A stretch of 32,000 nt of DNA from an uncultured Chloroflexia bacterium (GCA_963704755.1 OY969938.1:3690001-3722000), one strand, 5' to 3'; counted from the stretch's first letter, positions 20,557 through 27,578 are shown. Notes: generated by a model from the letters alone, not told the origin. A program made the numbers and translations.

Positions 20557-20979
20557 ATGGATGATTCAAAGTTGGTTAATTGTGCGGCCGTGTTCTTGTC
20601 GGAAAACGTGGAACGTACCGTCCAGTATTATCAGGATGTGTTAGGTTTTCGGGTGGTGACCCATTACGAAAATCCCGAGAAATTTGCCGCGATGTACCGG
20701 GATGACATCGAAATTGTGGTGGTGCTGGCCAGGTTTGGTCCGGTGCTGCCGAACCGGCGCCGCTATGGCGCGGGCTACGATGCCTACCTGGACCCCGCAA
20801 CTGTGGAAGGGGTGGACGGCCTGTACCAGGAATTCAGAAACCGCGGAGCGGTAATCCTCAATGCGCCGTCAATGACAGCCTATGGCAGCTATGAATTTAT
20901 CCTGGAGGACATCGATTCACGCCAGGTGTGCATCGGGCGGATCAAGCAGAAGGAAGTCTTCTTCGGCGACAAGGCCTGA
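20557..20979 (+). CDS. VOC (glyoxalase/bleomycin-resistance fold) family protein
   Basis: Size and pattern (VERTVQYYQDVLGF..) fit the family. GGGAGG RBS before ATG 20557. The assignment rests on pattern recognition only. Confidence 0.65.
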   Translation: MDDSKLVNCAAVFLSENVERTVQYYQDVLGFRVVTHYENPEKFAAMYRDDIEIVVVLARFGPVLPNRRRYGAGYDAYLDPATVEGVDGLYQEFRNRGAVILNAPSMTAYGSYEFILEDIDSRQVCIGRIKQKEVFFGDKA

Positions 20980-21068
20980 CCCGGGCAGCGAAGGCGTTTT
21001 CATGTGCAGGTGGCTCGATGACCAGCAGCTTCACAACTTTTGCGCTGCCCCCTTTGGCGGCTGAGTGC

Positions 21069-22055
21069 TCAAGTCGGGCGGCACTCGACCATAAAGGTGC
21101 TGGATGATTGTTGTCCGGCAGCGATTACTTCCAGTCCAGCCTTCTGCGCAAGCCCCCGAAACTCTGTTATGGTGCGATTCTTCCCTCCTAATAGCACCAT
21201 TTCGATCCGCAAGTCTTTGGGGGTATTATCCGGCCCGACACTTTTCAGAACCACGACCCGGCCGTCCGGCCGGGCGGCCTCGGCGCAGCGCTGTAAAATC
21301 TGGACCGCTTCTCGATCAGGCCAATCGTTCAGTACTCCCCTGAGTAAATAAAGGTCAGCACCGGGTGGCAGCAATTCGAAGAAACTCTGCCCGGAGATGG
21401 ATGCCCGTTCAGCTACACCGGCAGCATGGAAGATCGATCCAGAACGGGCCACTGTCCGGGGTAAATCGACCAGGGTTCCCCGGACTTCCGGGTGGGCACG
21501 CAAAATCTCGGCCAGCATTGCCCCGGTCCCTCCACCGACATCGACTACCGTCCGCACCGATCCCCAGCCGCCGGTAAGGCGGATTTCCGGATCAGGGGCG
21601 CCGTGGCCAGATGGCCCGATGAGGGCGTCAAAATCGGCGGCCAGGTTCGGGTGAGCGTCGAGGTCTTCCCAGAAAGGCAGCCCAAAAAGTTTGCTATAAG
21701 CCGGTTCACCGCGTCTGACATAATCGAGCAGAGTACCCCAGGCGTAAGCCATCCGTCCGCCGATGCCATCAAGATTAAGGAATTGTCCAAAAGAGGGGTC
21801 TAATAGCTGCCGGGCAGCATCGTTTAGTGAGAATTGGCCGGGAGCAATTTCTTCGAACACACCTTTGGCGATCAAGTGGCCAAGCACCTGATGGAGGGCA
21901 GTGGGATCACAGCCTGCGGCCTTGGCGAGGTCGTCGATTCGGTCTATCCCGGCCGCGATATGACCGGCAATGTCCAGGGTCGCCACTACGTGAATGCACC
22001 AGGGCGTGCACAGATCGGTCAGATCAAAGAGGTTTACTTCGCTTTTTTGAGGCAT
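21069..22055 (-). CDS. SAM-dependent O-methyltransferase (Methyltransf_2 family with N-terminal dimerisation/winged-helix domain)
   Basis: SAM motif VVDVGGGTG, the downstream DLP..V motif, and ~330 aa, typical of small-molecule OMTs. Confidence 0.85.
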   Translation of the reverse strand: MPQKSEVNLFDLTDLCTPWCIHVVATLDIAGHIAAGIDRIDDLAKAAGCDPTALHQVLGHLIAKGVFEEIAPGQFSLNDAARQLLDPSFGQFLNLDGIGGRMAYAWGTLLDYVRRGEPAYSKLFGLPFWEDLDAHPNLAADFDALIGPSGHGAPDPEIRLTGGWGSVRTVVDVGGGTGAMLAEILRAHPEVRGTLVDLPRTVARSGSIFHAAGVAERASISGQSFFELLPPGADLYLLRGVLNDWPDREAVQILQRCAEAARPDGRVVVLKSVGPDNTPKDLRIEMVLLGGKNRTITEFRGLAQKAGLEVIAAGQQSSSTFMVECRPT

Positions 22056-22134
22056 TCCTGAAACCTTTAAAATTTTTACATATACACCAAACTATACCGC
22101 ATATATCTAAATGTTGTCATGAAATAATATTAAT

Positions 22135-22980
22135 GCTATAAAAACACAAAGCCCGGCTTACGTCGGGCTCTCTGGTTGCGTAGCTCGGCTTTCAAAGCCG
22201 AGAAAACGCCGGCCGAAAAGAGTTCCGGCTACGGAAACGACCTGAACCAAAAAGGAGCCCCACGAAGGTGGGGCTTTGTGTATCTGTAGGTGCAGCTTTA
22301 GCTGCCAACAGTTCGTTCCTGCTTCTACGTTGGCGACTGAAGTCGCAGCTATAAAAACACAAAGCCCGGCCTACGCCGGGATCTCTGGTTGCGTAGCTCG
22401 GCTTTCAAAGCCGAGAAAACACCGGCCGAATAGATTTCCGGCTACGGAAACGACCTGAACCAAAAAAGAGTCCCACGAAGGTGGGGCTTTGTGTATCTGT
22501 AGGTGCAGCTTTAGCTGCCAACGGTTCGTTCCTGCTTCTACGTTGGCGACTGAAGTCGCGGCAAAAAGTACACAAAGCCCGGCCTACGCCGGGCGCTCTG
22601 GTTGCGTAGCTCGGCTTTCAAAGCCGAGAAAACGCCGGCCGAAAAGAGTTCCGGCTACGGAAACGACCTGAACCAAAAAGGAGCCCCACGAAAGTGGGGC
22701 TTTGCGTATCTGTAGGTGCAGCTTTAGCTGCCAACGGTTCGTACCTGCTTCTACGTTGGCGACTGAAGTCGCAGCTATAAAAACACAAAGCCCGGCCTAC
22801 GCCGGGCTCTCTGGTTGCGTAGCTCGGCTTTCAAAGCCGAGAAAACGCCGGCCGAATAGAGTTCCGGCTACGGAAACGATCTGAACCAAAAAGGAGCACC
22901 ACGAAGGTGGGGCTTTGTGTATCTGTAGGTGCAGCTTTAGCTGCCAACGGTTCGTTCAATAGCTCGGCCTTCAAAGCCAG
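22135..22980. repeat. Tandem array 1: ~3.9 copies of a 213-bp hairpin-dense unit (REP/BIME-like)
   Basis: ACACAAAGCCC recurs at 22143, 22356, 22569 and 22782, an exact 213-bp period. Each unit has at least 5 GC-rich stem-loops. The array ends with a degenerate hairpin copy at about 22960-22978. Confidence 0.92.
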
Positions 22981-22987
22981 GAAATAT

Positions 22988-23140
22988 CTATGTTGTTTTT
23001 TTCGTGTTTAATTGCCTTGCTCCAAGGATAAAAAGAAAAATTCCCAAAGCCGTGATTGGCATGCCGGCCGCATAGCTAACCGTTGAATTTAATATCGGTC
23101 CACTTATGATTAGGATTATTCCAAAAATTACTCTCGGCAT
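22988..23140 (-). CDS. Candidate small membrane protein (50 aa, two hydrophobic segments); not in the supplied ORF track (<60 aa)
   Basis: Minus strand reads GGGAGG-TTAATT-ATG, then MPRVIFGIILIISGPILNSTVSYAAGMPITALGIFLFILGARQLNTKKTT, then TAG. Strong RBS. No homology can be asserted. Confidence 0.4.
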   Translation of the reverse strand: MPRVIFGIILIISGPILNSTVSYAAGMPITALGIFLFILGARQLNTKKTT

Positions 23141-23172
23141 AATTAACCTCCCACGTAACTATTTAAGAAGTG

Positions 23173-23227
23173 CCCGAATTTAAGGTGTTTGCGAGGGCGA
23201 AGCCCTCGCAAACACCTTAAATTCGGG
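23173..23227. repeat. Perfect 26-bp-stem palindrome with GAA triloop (palindrome family A)
   Basis: CCCGAATTTAAGGTGTTTGCGAGGGC-GAA-GCCCTCGCAAACACCTTAAATTCGGG; the arms are exact reverse complements. Confidence 0.85.
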
Positions 23228-23340
23228 GTTCTTACCCTTCAGACTAAGCAGTTACCCGCTACTTTATAGATAGCTCTTTGGAAAATAATATCATGAAATT
23301 TAAGCTAATAATCGAATAAACCGTTACACACTGTAAGAAT

Positions 23341-23997
23341 ATCGTCGTGGCAACCCACGAAGCTTAAAAAGAAAAACCTCAACTTTATGAGGTTTTTTGA
23401 GCGGGCGATGGGAACTCGATCATTGATCCCCCTACGGGGAACCACGAACTTAAAAAGAAAAACCTCAACTTTATGAGGTTTTTTGAGCGGGCGATGGGAC
23501 ACGATCATTGATCCCCCCGCGGGGAACCACGAGCTTAAAAAGAAAAACCTCAACTTTATGAGGTTTTTTAAGCAGGCGATGGGACACGATCATTGATCCC
23601 CCTACGGGGAACCACGAGCTTAAAAAGAAAAACCTCAACTTTATGAGGTTTTTTGAGCGGGCGATGGGACACGATCATTGATCCCCCTACGGGGAACCAC
23701 GAGCTTAAAAAGAAAAACCTCAACTTTATGAGGTTTTTTGAGCGAGCGATGGGACACGATCATTGATCCCCCTACGGGGAACCACGAAGCTTAAAAAGAA
23801 AAACCTCAACTTTATGAGGTTTTTTGAGCGGGCGATGGGACTCGATCATTGATCCCCCTACGGGGAACCACGAGGTTAAAAAGAAAAACCTCAACTTTAT
23901 GAGGTTTTTTGAGCGGGCGATGGGACACGATCATTGATCCCCCTACGGGGAACCACGAAGCTTAAAAAGAAAAACCTCAACTTTATGAGGTTTTTTG
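23341..23997. repeat. Tandem array of eight 85/86-bp units directly abutting the tRNA-Gly 3' end. Each unit has a terminator hairpin plus a CCCC-CTAC-GGGG hairpin, and seven units also carry a 15-19-nt copy of the tRNA-Gly 3' end.
   Basis: CCTCAACTTT starts at 23377, 23463, 23548, 23633, 23718, 23804, 23889 and 23975. AGCGGGCGATGGGA(C) recurs 7 times and an eighth time as the true tRNA end. Confidence 0.92.
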
Positions 23998-24070
<73 letters not shown>

Positions 24071-24088
24071 AGTCCTGAACGTTCCGAA

Positions 24089-24117
24089 ATTATATACAGG
24101 AATTCTCCAGACGTCAA
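24089..24117 (-). promoter_or_regulatory. Sigma70 consensus-like promoter for tRNA-Gly: TTGACG-17 nt-TATAAT
   Basis: Read on the minus strand: TTGACG (24117-24112), a 17-nt spacer, and TATAAT (24094-24089). An 18-nt leader precedes the tRNA. Confidence 0.6.
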
Positions 24118-24242
24118 CCCTTCTCCAGGTTATCAAAACTATCAAGTTGCATTGCTTGACACGCATTTTTCAGTATGCTAAAGTTAATTTCACTCCGAAA
24201 GGCCACTTCGGTGTATGTGACTCTGGAATAAGGAGTTCCCCC

Positions 24243-24614
24243 TTGACTAAAAATCGTACTCAAATGATGGTAGAGCGTTTGCGTGAACTTCAAGCCTCAT
24301 CGATGGACATCGAAGCCTCTGCGATCGTAAGCGTGGATGGCTTGACCATCGCTTCTGCCCTCCCGCAAGGCGTGGAAGAGGACCGTGTCTCGGCTATGTC
24401 GGCGGCGATGTTATCCCTGGGCGAGCGGATTGCCAGCGAGCTTGGCCGGGGAGGACTGGAACAGGTTTACATTAAAGGAGAGAAAGGCTACGTGGTCTTG
24501 ATGTCAGTAGGGGAAGAGGCCGTACTCACCACCCTGGCACGCGAACAAGCCAAGCTGGGCCTGATTCTGCTGGATATGCGCCGGGCAACTGAAGACCTGG
24601 AAAAGTTGATCTAA
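24243..24614 (+). CDS. Roadblock/LC7 (MglB-like) domain protein
   Basis: ASAIVSVDGLTIASAL..RVSAMSAAMLSLGERIA..LEQVYIKGEKGYVVLMSVGEEAVLTTL fits the Robl_LC7 pattern. AAGGAG lies 7 nt before TTG 24243. Alternative start at ATG 24264. The track's upstream extension to 24147 runs into the tRNA promoter. Confidence 0.8.
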   Translation: MTKNRTQMMVERLRELQASSMDIEASAIVSVDGLTIASALPQGVEEDRVSAMSAAMLSLGERIASELGRGGLEQVYIKGEKGYVVLMSVGEEAVLTTLAREQAKLGLILLDMRRATEDLEKLI

Positions 24615-24622
24615 CGGGCATT

Positions 24623-25255
24623 ATGGAATTGATTCCGAAAAGCGGTTACTATTATCCGAACAAGATTGCCCGCATCGCGCTCCTGGCGATCGAGGACGTG
24701 ATGGGCAAAAATGGACTTAATGCAGTTTTGAACCTGGCCGGGTTAAGCGAAATCATTAACCATTACCCGCCGGATAACCTCGAGCGCCAGTTCGACTTTG
24801 CCGATTTCTCGGCCGTTCAGGGTGGGCTGGAGGAGATGTACGGTCCGCGCGGTGGGCGAGGACTGGCTTTACGGGCCGGACGGGCTACTTTCGACGCTGC
24901 GCTGCGTAACTTCGGCGCCCTGGCCGGGGTGGGTGACCTGGCTTTCAAGGTGCTGCCGCTGCAAGCCAAGCTGCGCATCGGCATGGGGGCAATGGCCCGT
25001 ATCTTTTCACAAACCAGCGACCAGCAGACCACGGTCGAGGAAAAAGACGACCATTTCGTCTACCTTATTCACCGCTGCCCGGTCTGTTGGGGGCGACAAA
25101 CCGAAAAGCCGGCCTGTTTTATCGCCACGGGCTTGCTCCAGGAGGGCCTGAAATGGGTCTCGGGGGGACACGAGTTTCGCGTTTCGCAGGAAACGGCCCA
25201 TTCGGCAGGAGACGAATCCTGCAATTTCATCATTTATAAAGATCCGCTCGAATAG
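24623..25255 (+). CDS. V4R (4-vinyl reductase) domain protein
   Basis: C-terminal pattern HRCPVC..KPACFIATGLLQEGLKWVSGG..AGDESCNFII is characteristic of V4R / COG1719-type small-molecule-binding domains. Confidence 0.7.
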   Translation: MELIPKSGYYYPNKIARIALLAIEDVMGKNGLNAVLNLAGLSEIINHYPPDNLERQFDFADFSAVQGGLEEMYGPRGGRGLALRAGRATFDAALRNFGALAGVGDLAFKVLPLQAKLRIGMGAMARIFSQTSDQQTTVEEKDDHFVYLIHRCPVCWGRQTEKPACFIATGLLQEGLKWVSGGHEFRVSQETAHSAGDESCNFIIYKDPLE

Positions 25256-25355
25256 GGGACCGGGTGGAATGAGAGCGTCCTCTCTGCTTTTCGGGAGCAA
25301 TTTTCGACAAATAGAGGGTTGCCTCGATCCAAATCGGGATAAAATTAGTGCATAT

Positions 25356-25392
25356 CCGGCGGCCCAGAAATTTCCATTGGCCGCCGGTTGTT
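25356..25392 (+). terminator. Weak terminator candidate CCGGCGGCC..(13-nt loop)..GGCCGCCGG-TTGTTT
   Basis: 9-bp GC stem followed by a short interrupted T tract, downstream of the V4R gene. Confidence 0.35.
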
Positions 25393-25441
25393 TACGGCGT
25401 CGTGAACGGCGCTGCATAAAAAATCAATCATCAGGTATTCT

Positions 25442-26179
25442 TTGAAAACGACTTTTGTTATTCCGACGTATAACGAAGCAGAGAATTTGCCCAAGCTGGC
25501 TTCGGCTTTATTCGATTTGGGCTTGAGCGATTTGAGCCTGCTGGTGGTGGACGATAACAGCCCGGACGGTACCGGCCAAATCGCCGAAGACCTGGCGGTG
25601 CAGTGGAACGGGCGAGTGCAGGTGATGCACCGGCCGGGTAAGATGGGCCTGGGCAGTGCCTACATTCAGGGTTTTACCCGCGCGCTCAACCTGGGGGCCG
25701 AGGCGATTGGCCAGATGGACGCCGATTTTTCTCACCCGACCGAAAAGGTGGCTGACTTAACGCGTTCCTCCGAAACTGCCGACCTCTCGCTGGGTTCGCG
25801 CTACGTGCCGGGCGGAAAATTGGACGATCGCTGGCCGGCCTCGCGAAAATGGCTCTCCGGCTTTGGAAATGTTTATGCTCGTACTATCCTGGGAATGCAG
25901 ATTCGCGACGTGACCGGTGGGTTCCGCCTATGGCGGGCGGAAGCGCTGCGGCGTATGCCTTTGGAGCGGGTCAAGTCGAATGGTTACATCTTCCAGGTGG
26001 AGATGGCTTACATCGCCAGCCTGTTGGGGTTTCGTGTCACCGAAATCCCGATCTACTTTGCCGACCGGCGCTGGGGCCAGTCCAAGATGTCGATGCGGAT
26101 CCAGTTGGAGGCGGCTTACCGGACCTGGCTGCTGCCTGGCCTGTACACCGATCTGCGCCGGAAGCGCTCGCTGCTGTAG
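25442..26179 (+). CDS. GT2 polyprenol/dolichol-phosphate mannosyltransferase (Ppm1/DPM1-like)
   Basis: FVIPTYNEAENL, VVDDNSPDGT and QMDADFSHP motifs. TTG start. The stop codon TAG (26177-26179) lies inside the first GTAG motif of repeat array 2. Confidence 0.85.
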   Translation: MKTTFVIPTYNEAENLPKLASALFDLGLSDLSLLVVDDNSPDGTGQIAEDLAVQWNGRVQVMHRPGKMGLGSAYIQGFTRALNLGAEAIGQMDADFSHPTEKVADLTRSSETADLSLGSRYVPGGKLDDRWPASRKWLSGFGNVYARTILGMQIRDVTGGFRLWRAEALRRMPLERVKSNGYIFQVEMAYIASLLGFRVTEIPIYFADRRWGQSKMSMRIQLEAAYRTWLLPGLYTDLRRKRSLL

Positions 26180-27000
26180 CCCGGCTTTCCAAGCCGGGAA
26201 TGTGCTGGGTTAAAGAGCCTTCGAGGTTATAACCAGGCCTTTGGCCACGGCGGTGGCAGTTGAAACTGCACCTACAAGGACACAAAGCCCCACCTGCGTG
26301 GGGCTCCTTTGGGAGTGCAGGTCGCTGCCTAAGGCGGAACTCTGTTCGGGCGGCGTATTCTCGGCTTTGAAAGCCGAGCTACGCAACCGGGGAGCCCGGC
26401 GAAGGCCGGGCTTTGTGTATTTGTAGAAGCGACTTCAGTCGCTAACGAATGAAGACACCCTGTAGCCCGGCTTTCCAAGCCGGGAATGTGCTTGGTTAAA
26501 AGAGCCTTCGAGGTTATAACCAGGCCTTTGGCCACGGCGGTGGCAGTTGAAACTGCACCTACAAGGACACAAAGCCTCACCTGCGTGGGGCTCCTTTTTG
26601 GCTACAGGTCGCTGCCTAAGCCGGAACTCTGTTCGGGCGGCGTATTCTCGGCTTTGAAAGCCGAGCTACGCAACCGGGGAACCCGGCGAAGGCCGGGCTT
26701 TGTGTATTTGTAGCCGCGACTTCAGTCGCTAACGAATGAAGACACCCTGTAGCCCGGCTTTCCAAGCCGGGAATGTGCTGGGTTAAAAGAGCCTTCGAGG
26801 TTATAACCAGGCCTTTGGCCACGGCGGTGGCAGTTGAAACTGCACCTACGAGGACAAAAAAGCCCCACCTGCGTGGAGCTCCTTTTGGGGGTGCAGGTCG
26901 TTTCCGTAGCCGGAGACCTGTTCGGGGGGCGTATTCTCGGCTTTGAAAGCCGAGCTACGCAACCGCGGAGCCCGGCGAAGGCCGGGCTTTGTACTTCTGT
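26175..27000. repeat. Tandem array 2: ~2.9 copies of a 286/287-bp unit. It has a core homologous to array 1 but in inverted orientation, plus an extra GTAG-hairpin module.
   Basis: TGTAGCCCGGCTTTCCAAGCCGGG occurs at 26175, 26461 and 26748. The core (e.g. 26265-26420) is the reverse complement of the array 1 unit at roughly 80-85% identity by eye. Confidence 0.92.
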
Positions 27001-27137
27001 TGATGCACTTTCTATCGTTAACGAGGCAAATTAATCCCACCGATCCAATTGCACTGCATCCTTTCTCAAGGAATTTTCGTATACGAAAGTGGGATAAACA
27101 AAATTGGATGAGGGGGGTAAAAATATTGGGAGGAAAA

Positions 27138-27578
27138 ATGCAGCAGGCTATTTGGGATTTTGTACAGTGTAAAGAAATTGCCGTCGTTGGCGCTTCACGT
27201 TCCGGCAAGAAGTTCGGCAACTCCATCGCTAGCGAGTTACGCCAACGGGGCTACCAGGTTTTTTTAGTGCATCCAGAGGCTCAAGAAATCGATAGGCAAC
27301 TTTGCTACCCCAATCTGGCAGCCCTGGAGGGCAAAGTCAACGCAGTGGTCATCTGTGTACCGCCGTACAAGGCTGCCCAGGTGCTGCGTGAAGCGGTTGC
27401 GGCCGGGGTGAAGAATATCTGGCTTCAGCAAGGAGCCGACTTAAGTGAAGCCCAGAAAGTGGCCCACGAACTGGGCGTCGAACCGGTCTCCGGCAAGTGC
27501 ATTTTGATGTATGCGGGGCAGGTCAGTTCGGTGCACGCTTTCCATCGCTTCATCTGGAAGCTGGTCGGTCAGTATTAG
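27138..27578 (+). CDS. CoA-binding domain protein (YccU/YneT-like)
   Basis: IAVVGASRSGKKFGN.. is the typical CoA_binding_2 N-terminus. GGGAGG lies before ATG 27138. The upstream part of track ORF 26943 runs through repeat array 2. Confidence 0.8.
   Translation: MQQAIWDFVQCKEIAVVGASRSGKKFGNSIASELRQRGYQVFLVHPEAQEIDRQLCYPNLAALEGKVNAVVICVPPYKAAQVLREAVAAGVKNIWLQQGADLSEAQKVAHELGVEPVSGKCILMYAGQVSSVHAFHRFIWKLVGQY

Follow-up and report, generated by a model that had tools for sequence, protein, structure and literature searches.

A tandem, probably BIME-like cluster of GTAG-tagged palindromes in an Anaerolineaceae-like chromosome

The 32,000-nucleotide stretch of DNA analysed here (OY969938.1:3690001-3722000, genome assembly GCA_963704755.1; called the window below) carries a tandem array of GC-rich hairpins at 22135-22957, termed array 1. 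This array is best explained as a non-coding cluster of repetitive extragenic palindromic (REP) type palindromes, resembling the bacterial interspersed mosaic element BIME-2 in its architecture and amplified in tandem after insertion into an Anaerolineaceae-like (Chloroflexota) chromosome. A probability of roughly 0.6 is assigned to this explanation. Transcription termination and stabilisation of transcript ends are likely side effects of such a cluster. Clusters of the REP/BIME kind, whether selfish or regulatory, are familiar from E. coli and Pseudomonas. The proteins encoded in the window belong to one contig of 4,871,623 bp, and their relatives are found in Anaerolineae and Anaerolineaceae, such as Bellilinea, Anaerolinea thermolimosa and Ornatilinea.

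Tandem Repeats Finder was used to delimit array 1 and returned a period of 213 bp and 3.9 copies, with 94% matches, 0% indels and a score of 1499. The head-to-tail units occupy 22135-22347, 22348-22560, 22561-22773 and 22774-22957; the first three are identical to one another at 198-203 of 213 bases, and the fourth ends early with a length of 184 bp. A sequence-only reading of the window had described this repeat, and its period and recurrence were reproduced, with all of the coordinates it gave being 1 too low. The 11-mer ACACAAAGCCC starts on the + strand at 22144, 22357, 22570 and 22783. Counted together with its complement GGGCTTTGTGT and allowing at most one mismatch, it reaches 12 occurrences in the window where 0.73 would be expected, all of them inside array 1 or inside a second, related locus termed array 3 (Table 1). 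Another motif, GTAGCYCGGCTTTCMAAGCCGRG, was found 10 times against 0.00 expected. The inverted 11-nt termini ACACAAAGCCC...GGGCTTTGTGT had also been recognised in the sequence-only reading; they enclose a core of 138 bp (22144-22281), not one of 135 bp as proposed there.

The tetranucleotide GTAG or its complement CTAC is present 5 times per 213-bp unit, compared with 0.84 expected from the remaining window (Poisson P ~0.002), and the predicted alternation of the two was found, with CTAC at 22229 and 22325 in unit 1. Folding of one unit relative to shuffled sequences gave z = -6.2 for the + strand RNA, -4.8 for the - strand RNA and -5.3 for DNA. An independent short-read assembly (Logan ERR11571143) matches 20919-22193 at 99.9%, and this match crosses the left junction and extends 59 bases into array 1, including variants specific to unit 1. 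Since the independent assembly reproduces the left junction, that junction is not an assembly artefact. The repeat, the hairpins, the GTAG enrichment, the fold z-scores and the independent assembly confirm that array 1 is real. Its neighbours are a small - strand open reading frame (ORF) at 22988-23140 on one side and, on the other, a - strand O-methyltransferase gene (21069-22055), whose start faces the array.

The modules of each unit follow the order A(-) B(+) C(-) D(+) E(+) F(-) and are joined by conserved linkers; 3.9 tandem copies make up array 1 and 2.9 array 3, and the hairpins listed in the sequence-only reading (A, B, D, E and F) are all there. Two types of module can be distinguished. 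The R type consists of GTAG-tagged hairpins, namely B, its counterpart B' in array 3, E, F and, less convincingly, C. In R modules GTAG stands 0-2 nt before the hairpin, the loop is TCA, TTCA or TTTA, and tag and stem together measure 11-12 nt. The stems of B and B' are perfect over 8 bp with a 3-nt loop, that of F has 5-6 bp and that of E 5 bp, both with a 4-nt loop. An unpaired GTAG tag at the foot of the stem is present in B, B', E and the F of array 3, and the tag is degenerate in the F of array 1 (ATAG) and in the C of array 3 (CTAAG), where conservation of the C hairpin is not clear.

The T type consists of A and D, which are two variants of GAGCCC-NN-CG-NAG-G-NN-GGGC + TTTGTGT that differ by compensatory changes. 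The 11-nt inverted termini arise because A and D are in inverted orientation. Both hairpins carry no GTAG tag of their own, and they form a separate module type, so that the sequence-only reading is partly off on these two terminal hairpins. A T hairpin ending in TTTGTGT is followed after exactly 4 nt by GTAG (or ATAG) and an R hairpin, and this combination is called here the T-R dyad. Between F and the hairpin A of the next unit, ATAG sits on the - strand at 22349-22352, which makes a degenerate T-R dyad. The 213-bp unit as a whole is nearly palindromic, with two outward T-R dyads around a central, opposed pair of the REPs B and C. In the minimum-energy fold A is joined with D over ~20 bp, and each of the two also folds singly. 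A degenerate terminal REP marks the right edge of array 1, with a gap of 6 nt between it and the stop codon of the small - strand ORF.

Table 1. Coordinates of the modules and of the second locus (positions in the window)
Feature	Position	Strand	Sequence, structure and recurrence
T-type hairpin A	22144-22170 (18-nt hairpin 22151-22168)	-	GAGCCCGACGTAAGCCGGGC + TTTGTGT; again at +213, +426, +639
REP B	22180-22202	+	GTAG + CTCGGCTTTCAAAGCCGAG, 8-bp stem, 3-nt loop; also 22393-22415, 22606-22628, 22819-22841
Module C	22209-22232	-	GTAG + CCGGAACTCTTTTCGGCCGG, weak 4-5-bp stem; every 213 bp
T-type hairpin D	22255-22281 with tail (hairpin 22256-22275)	+	GAGCCCCACGAAGGTGGGGC + TTTGTGT; every 213 bp; inverted partner of A
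REP E	22286-22306	+	GTAG + GTGCAGCTTTAGCTGCC, 11 nt past the stem of D (T-R dyad); every 213 bp
Hairpin F	22325-22352	-	GCGACTGAAGTCGC at 22333-22346, CTAC at 22325-22328
Degenerate terminal REP, right edge of array 1	22959-22981	+	ATAG + CTCGGCCTTCAAAGCCAGG
Array 3	26174-26992	.	287-bp unit x 2.9 (Tandem Repeats Finder); last copy decayed out to ~27034
REP B'	26176-26198	+	GTAG + CCCGGCTTTCCAAGCCGGG; also 26462-26484, 26749-26771
REP B in array 3	26360-26382	-	identical to B of array 1; also 26647-26669, 26936-26958
T-R dyad, array 3	26392-26443	+	GAGCCCGGCGAAGGCCGGGC + TTTGTGT + ATTT + GTAG + AA + GCGACTTCAGTCGC; again at +287
T-R dyad, array 3	26253-26306	-	T hairpin D (26280-26306), then GTAG + GTGCAGTTTCAACTGCCAC (26253-26275)

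Array 3 contains a core F-A-B-C-D-E that corresponds to ~175 bp of the array 1 unit, in reverse orientation and with 82-84% identity, to which a different spacer and REP B' are added. Compensatory changes were observed between B and B' (T-A to C-G) and between the E stems of arrays 1 and 3 (C-G to T-A). Because the same core is found inverted and joined to other modules at a second locus, the modules constitute a modular family and not a single local duplication. The + strand dyad of array 3 runs the same way as the flanking + strand genes. One of these, a GT2 gene at 25442-26179 whose product is polyprenol-phosphate mannosyltransferase-like, ends in a stop codon that is the TAG within the first GTAG tag of array 3. 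The GT2 protein has 245 aa, the same as its orthologue, and only the last residue differs (L vs A).

Related modules were also obtained from other phyla. A metagenome scan with the T pattern identified 13 contigs from one sample, with a GC content of 69-74%, in which the hairpin lies between housekeeping genes. One of these contigs (L006) was assigned to Longimicrobiaceae (Gemmatimonadota) through a protein that falls in a 90% cluster with a protein of a metagenome-assembled genome (MAG) from that family. The Longimicrobiaceae T hairpin has the same GAAG and GCAG loop variants, and after it come, in every case, TGCC-GTAC and an imperfectly palindromic sequence, CCCCGGGYTTCARCCCGAGGG. The distance from the T stem to the GTAG or GTAC tag is constant at 11 nt, here and in the Longimicrobiaceae contigs, where the hairpin occurs singly, as inverted pairs 120-130 bp apart and as tandem duplicates of ~200 bp. 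In a comparison of 34 T hairpins, 97.7% of the stem cells were paired and double changes were seen at two stem positions, in 7 sequences at one and 8 at the other; the observed value was not equalled in any of 500 shuffles. Between strains with 88-94% DNA identity in the flanking genes, orthologous spacers differ in the number and arrangement of these elements, or have none.

On contig L006, a serine-hydrolase gene lies between inverted ~200-bp tandem duplicates (1270-1560 and 2400-2740), each made of CCCCCGGCTGGAACAACAGTCGC... followed by a T hairpin and a GTAC hairpin. At the same site in two other Longimicrobiaceae strains (contigs L018 and L019), there is one element or an inverted pair of another subtype.

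As for the R type, a scan of one genome per GTDB species gave exact matches to B or B' only twice, both in MAGs of the Planctomycetes-Verrucomicrobia-Chlamydiae (PVC) group: B in a Prosthecobacter MAG (Verrucomicrobiota) and B' in a Phycisphaerales MAG (Planctomycetota), each within an inverted pair of tagged hairpins. In the latter (JAXMAK010000001.1; L003 6200-6295), the GTAC/GTAG hairpin pair with B' lies in frame inside a 579-aa gamma-glutamyltransferase (ggt) ORF, to which it adds ~30 residues including PGLESRAT. A REP dimer within the gamma-glutamyltransferase gene of another species is on record (PMC3733652). No T or B module was found in viral contigs, a plasmid collection gave one chance 27-nt match only, and a literature search by hairpin sequence returned unrelated primer matches only.

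GTAG-tagged REPs have been documented in Proteobacteria, Cyanobacteria, Chloroflexi and the PVC group (PMC3733652). Among Chloroflexi, Di Nocera et al. reported them from Thermomicrobium roseum, Roseiflexus castenholzii and Chloroflexus aggregans, clustered in blocks (Di Nocera et al., 2013, PMC3733652), which makes outdated the statement in the sequence-only reading that genomes of this kind have no known family of such elements. A search for a published description of REPs in Anaerolineae found none. Members of the GTAG superfamily have 6-9-bp stems and very short loops (PMC3733652), and in short REPs foot and stem together take up 10-13 nt (PMC6006769). The GTAG-23 family of T. roseum and R. 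castenholzii (PMC3733652), set beside the present modules by description, is alike in its GC-rich stem-loops, unpaired terminal GTAG and short loops. It differs in that the REPs here are interleaved with untagged T hairpins and the host belongs to Anaerolineae. An alignment of REP-associated tyrosine transposases (RAYTs) and of tyrosine transposases associated with terminal inverted repeats (TIRs) in the same paper includes 'rca 2775', taken as R. castenholzii.

BIME-2 of Escherichia coli consists of Y and Z2 REPs alternating in tandem, and shares with the arrays the alternating palindromes, conserved linkers and variable tandem number, and its position, like theirs, is intergenic or directly behind a stop codon. 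The units of the arrays are longer, at 213-287 bp, and contain 6-7 modules of at least three types; there is no sequence similarity, blastn against 5,426 E. coli genomes having given no match. REP doublets forming hairpins (REPINs) of Pseudomonas fluorescens (Bertels and Rainey, 2011, PMC3116915) likewise have two inverted modules predicted to pair, as A and D are, which is the proposed mobile unit of the REPIN model. Unlike in REPINs, the paired modules here are untagged and the spacer is much longer (~85 bp, with two more REPs in it). A further comparison is offered by the double-palindromic TIRs of tyrosine-transposase genes, in which a degenerate GTAG unit and an unrelated stem-loop are combined; P. 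putida and P. fluorescens carry hundreds of them (PMC3733652). By description, they are like the T-R dyad in having an untagged stem-loop beside a GTAG-type unit, whereas the described ones have a transposase gene between them, which was not seen here. The Acido-Lenti-1 RNA motif (RF01687) is similar in its layout of two hairpins with a TAG-containing linker. Dyads of the window gave no match to it at E <=5, so membership was rejected; the Longimicrobiaceae dyad scored 21.1 bits, below the gathering score of 37.

The closest available relative was compared, whose GT2 protein is 78% identical and whose gene order is the same. It has no tandem arrays at the syntenic sites (contig L020, 6900-11060); there is a single tRNA-Gly with a plain terminator, and the spacer between GT2 and the CoA-binding gene measures 304 bp compared with ~960 bp here. 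No T or B-like modules were found in ~65 kb of contigs from three relatives. From this absence it follows that the arrays were gained recently and specifically in this lineage. The closest relative does have a single REP dimer with a different sequence, GGTGGGCTAAAGCCCACC-ATAC ... GTAG-GGTGGGCTTTAGCCCACC, in a 1-kb gene-free spacer (L020 5985-6050), so GTAG REPs occur in this Anaerolineaceae clade beyond the genome of the window.

A further array lies between the two described above. Array 2 (23355-24016) has 7.7 copies of an 85-bp unit with 96% identity, with a - strand tRNA-Gly gene at 23997-24070. On the - strand its unit comprises the last ~21 nt of tRNA-Gly(GCC), the terminator hairpin of that tRNA, AAAAACCTCATAAAGTTGAGGTTTTT, and a 28-nt spacer with CCCCGTAGGGGG, and it looks like a reiterated attachment-site (att) like tRNA 3' end. 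The same tRNA-Gly in the relative (L020) has one different terminator and no 85-bp array. Three independent arrays, with periods of 213, 85 and 287 bp, thus lie within 5 kb (22135-27034), and the closest relative has none of them in its syntenic region, which points to a tendency, specific to the genome or the region, to amplify hairpin-rich intergenic DNA near tRNA-Gly. Between arrays 1 and 2, at 23173-23227, there is also a perfect palindrome of 26 + 26 nt with a 3-nt loop (CCCGAATTTAAGGTGTTTGCGAGGGC / GCCCTCGCAAACACCTTAAATTCGGG), which is unrelated to the REP modules.

The REP/BIME-like mosaic proposed in the sequence-only reading is upheld by the tagged hairpins with 5-8-bp stems and 3-4-nt loops, their alternating orientation and the conserved linkers, and also by the inverted second array, the compensatory stem changes and the counterparts in other phyla. 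According to the mechanism proposed, single modules or dyads would be non-autonomous elements, and a Y1 HUH enzyme, RAYT or TnpA-REP-like and encoded elsewhere in the genome, would act on them in trans, cutting and joining the hairpins that they form in single-stranded DNA; it is resemblance to known families that suggests mobilisation of the RAYT type. Once in place, the composite would have multiplied on the spot, its repeated hairpins allowing unequal recombination or replication slippage, and such local amplification would account for the 94% identical units with decayed edge copies. In RNA, the hairpins with their U-rich tails may serve as stacked terminators and 3'-end stabilisers, and with the A-type T hairpin of each unit facing as the flanking genes do in both arrays, the arrays would insulate neighbouring transcription units.

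Several observations weigh against this explanation. No Y1 transposase domain (Y1_Tnp) was detected in any sizeable ORF of the window, which agrees with the earlier remark that the window has no RAYT gene, and the related contigs examined (metagenome contigs and relatives) showed only housekeeping and metabolic genes and no Y1 transposase, the metagenome contigs having no transposase at all. The modules are confined within the window to the two intergenic arrays, with no singletons, and dispersed copies were seen only for the related Longimicrobiaceae elements. Exact copies of B or B' were not found in other Anaerolineae among the genomes of the GTDB species scan. Module C is not convincing as a conserved hairpin, and A and D, the most conserved hairpins, are untagged and may belong to a different system. 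Lastly, the terminator or stabiliser role has a consensus scan as its sole source.

A tentative and rather doubtful variant is that the T-R dyad is the true mobile unit. As a substrate with two hairpins for a Y1 HUH enzyme, the dyad would have passed between phyla (Chloroflexota, Gemmatimonadota and perhaps the PVC group), its first hairpin would double as an intrinsic terminator, and inverted pairs of dyads would form palindromic super-units, which this genome amplifies in tandem. If the dyad moves, every insertion would carry its own transcription stop. That the T-R dyad is common to a distant phylum is the one aspect of the arrays that goes beyond expectation, the rest being mostly ordinary.

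Alternatively, the 138-bp core could be a miniature inverted-repeat or palindrome-associated transposable element (MITE or PATE), that is, a deletion derivative of a non-RAYT insertion sequence of the IS200/IS605 or DDE type that was later tandemly duplicated. The right end of IS200/IS605-type elements has a hairpin with a cleavage tetranucleotide ~10 nt downstream, and the constant 11-nt distance from T to GTAG or GTAC, here and in Longimicrobiaceae, recalls the end geometry of IS608. The inverted termini and the predicted fold that pairs both ends point in the same direction, as does the patchy distribution of Y1 enzymes of this class, which has been read as horizontal transfer and loss (PMC6006769). 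However, no target-site duplication surrounds the core in either array (the flanks are AAAA vs ATCT and AAGG vs ATTT), and no transposase of any kind was seen beside a copy. The bases 5' of the T stem, where the guide sequence would be, are not conserved, and the Longimicrobiaceae T hairpin mostly occurs singly, not in pairs. Such an origin of the core is improbable.

The possibility that the arrays consist of ordinary intrinsic terminators, duplicated locally and kept by host selection as bidirectional terminators or insulators with no mobile element involved, was considered in the light of the consensus scan. The scan gave 29 terminator-like sites in 21900-27300 compared with 8.5 expected, roughly half of them within arrays 1 and 3. 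A-type and D-type hairpins, with a GC-rich stem and a T/U-rich tract, were called terminator-like on the gene-sense strand of both arrays. The A-type hairpin, in which the TTTGTGT tail is followed by more T, is oriented like the flanking genes in both arrays, and around array 1 it looks like a terminator for the - strand genes on either side. The tandem amplification of the neighbouring tRNA-Gly terminator also fits selection of terminators by the host, yet the same 27-nt hairpin with its loop variants is found in a Gemmatimonadota organism of 72% GC, often against the direction of transcription. The GTAG tags are enriched although termination does not need them, and the relative that lacks the arrays has plain single terminators at these sites. 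Overall, host-selected terminators are a clearly unlikely origin of the arrays.

Equally unlikely are tandem small-RNA genes, the other option offered by the sequence-only reading. Each unit would encode a structured RNA of ~135 nt, extending from ACACAAAG to the D hairpin as terminator, amplified as in known tandem small-RNA arrays. The strong predicted fold of the + strand RNA, the hairpin and U-rich tail at the 3' end of the core and the AT-rich TATAAA just upstream of it are in keeping with such genes. A consensus scan nevertheless detected no sigma-70-like promoter site inside either array, the elements TTGGCG and TATAAA being only 14 nt apart, and the core is symmetrical and terminator-like on both strands. 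A search of Rfam 15 gave only three tRNAs at the gathering threshold in the window and nothing credible at E <=5; the best scores inside the arrays were 17-32 bits against thresholds of 47-110. Moreover, the modules are also found apart from one another or in new combinations, and they face either way with respect to genes, both in the window and in other phyla, which speaks against structured-RNA genes.

A protein-coding repeat, with a 60-aa ORF recurring in register every 213 bp (three such ORFs; the period is divisible by 3, 71 codons), is effectively refuted: every frame is stopped in each unit, the longest ORFs reach 60 aa (83 aa in array 3) from TTG or GTG starts, a profile of five recurring array ORFs, searched against 5.8 billion proteins, matched none at E <=10, and the homologous core of array 3 recurs with a period of 287, not divisible by 3. 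CRISPR, integron attC array and iterons were also dropped as candidates, since the spacers between repeats are invariant and there are no cassettes or replication genes.

Two other features were noted away from the arrays. At 419-829 and 651-1967 of the window, the N-terminal part of an ATPase_2 protein and the ATPase_2/DUF234 remainder are encoded in two overlapping frames, which is probably a frameshifted gene or a sequencing error. In the relative (L020 15541-18452), a Transposase_mut gene is followed by a SLATT_5 gene and a reverse transcriptase (RVT_1) gene; the latter two form a pair of retron-like or defence-like character, and the window has no such pair.

The finding opens no new mechanism. 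If the arrays are indeed REP-type clusters, the range of REP/BIME-type clusters would include Anaerolineae, a large class whose members are mostly uncultured. Short-read assemblies break at such arrays, which also yield spurious ORFs and can provide stop codons, as for the GT2 gene here, and recognising the arrays improves the annotation of MAGs. Interchangeable hairpins of 23-27 nt that are near-identical in four phyla of very different base composition bear on the question of a joint horizontal spread of REP systems and their Y1 enzymes.

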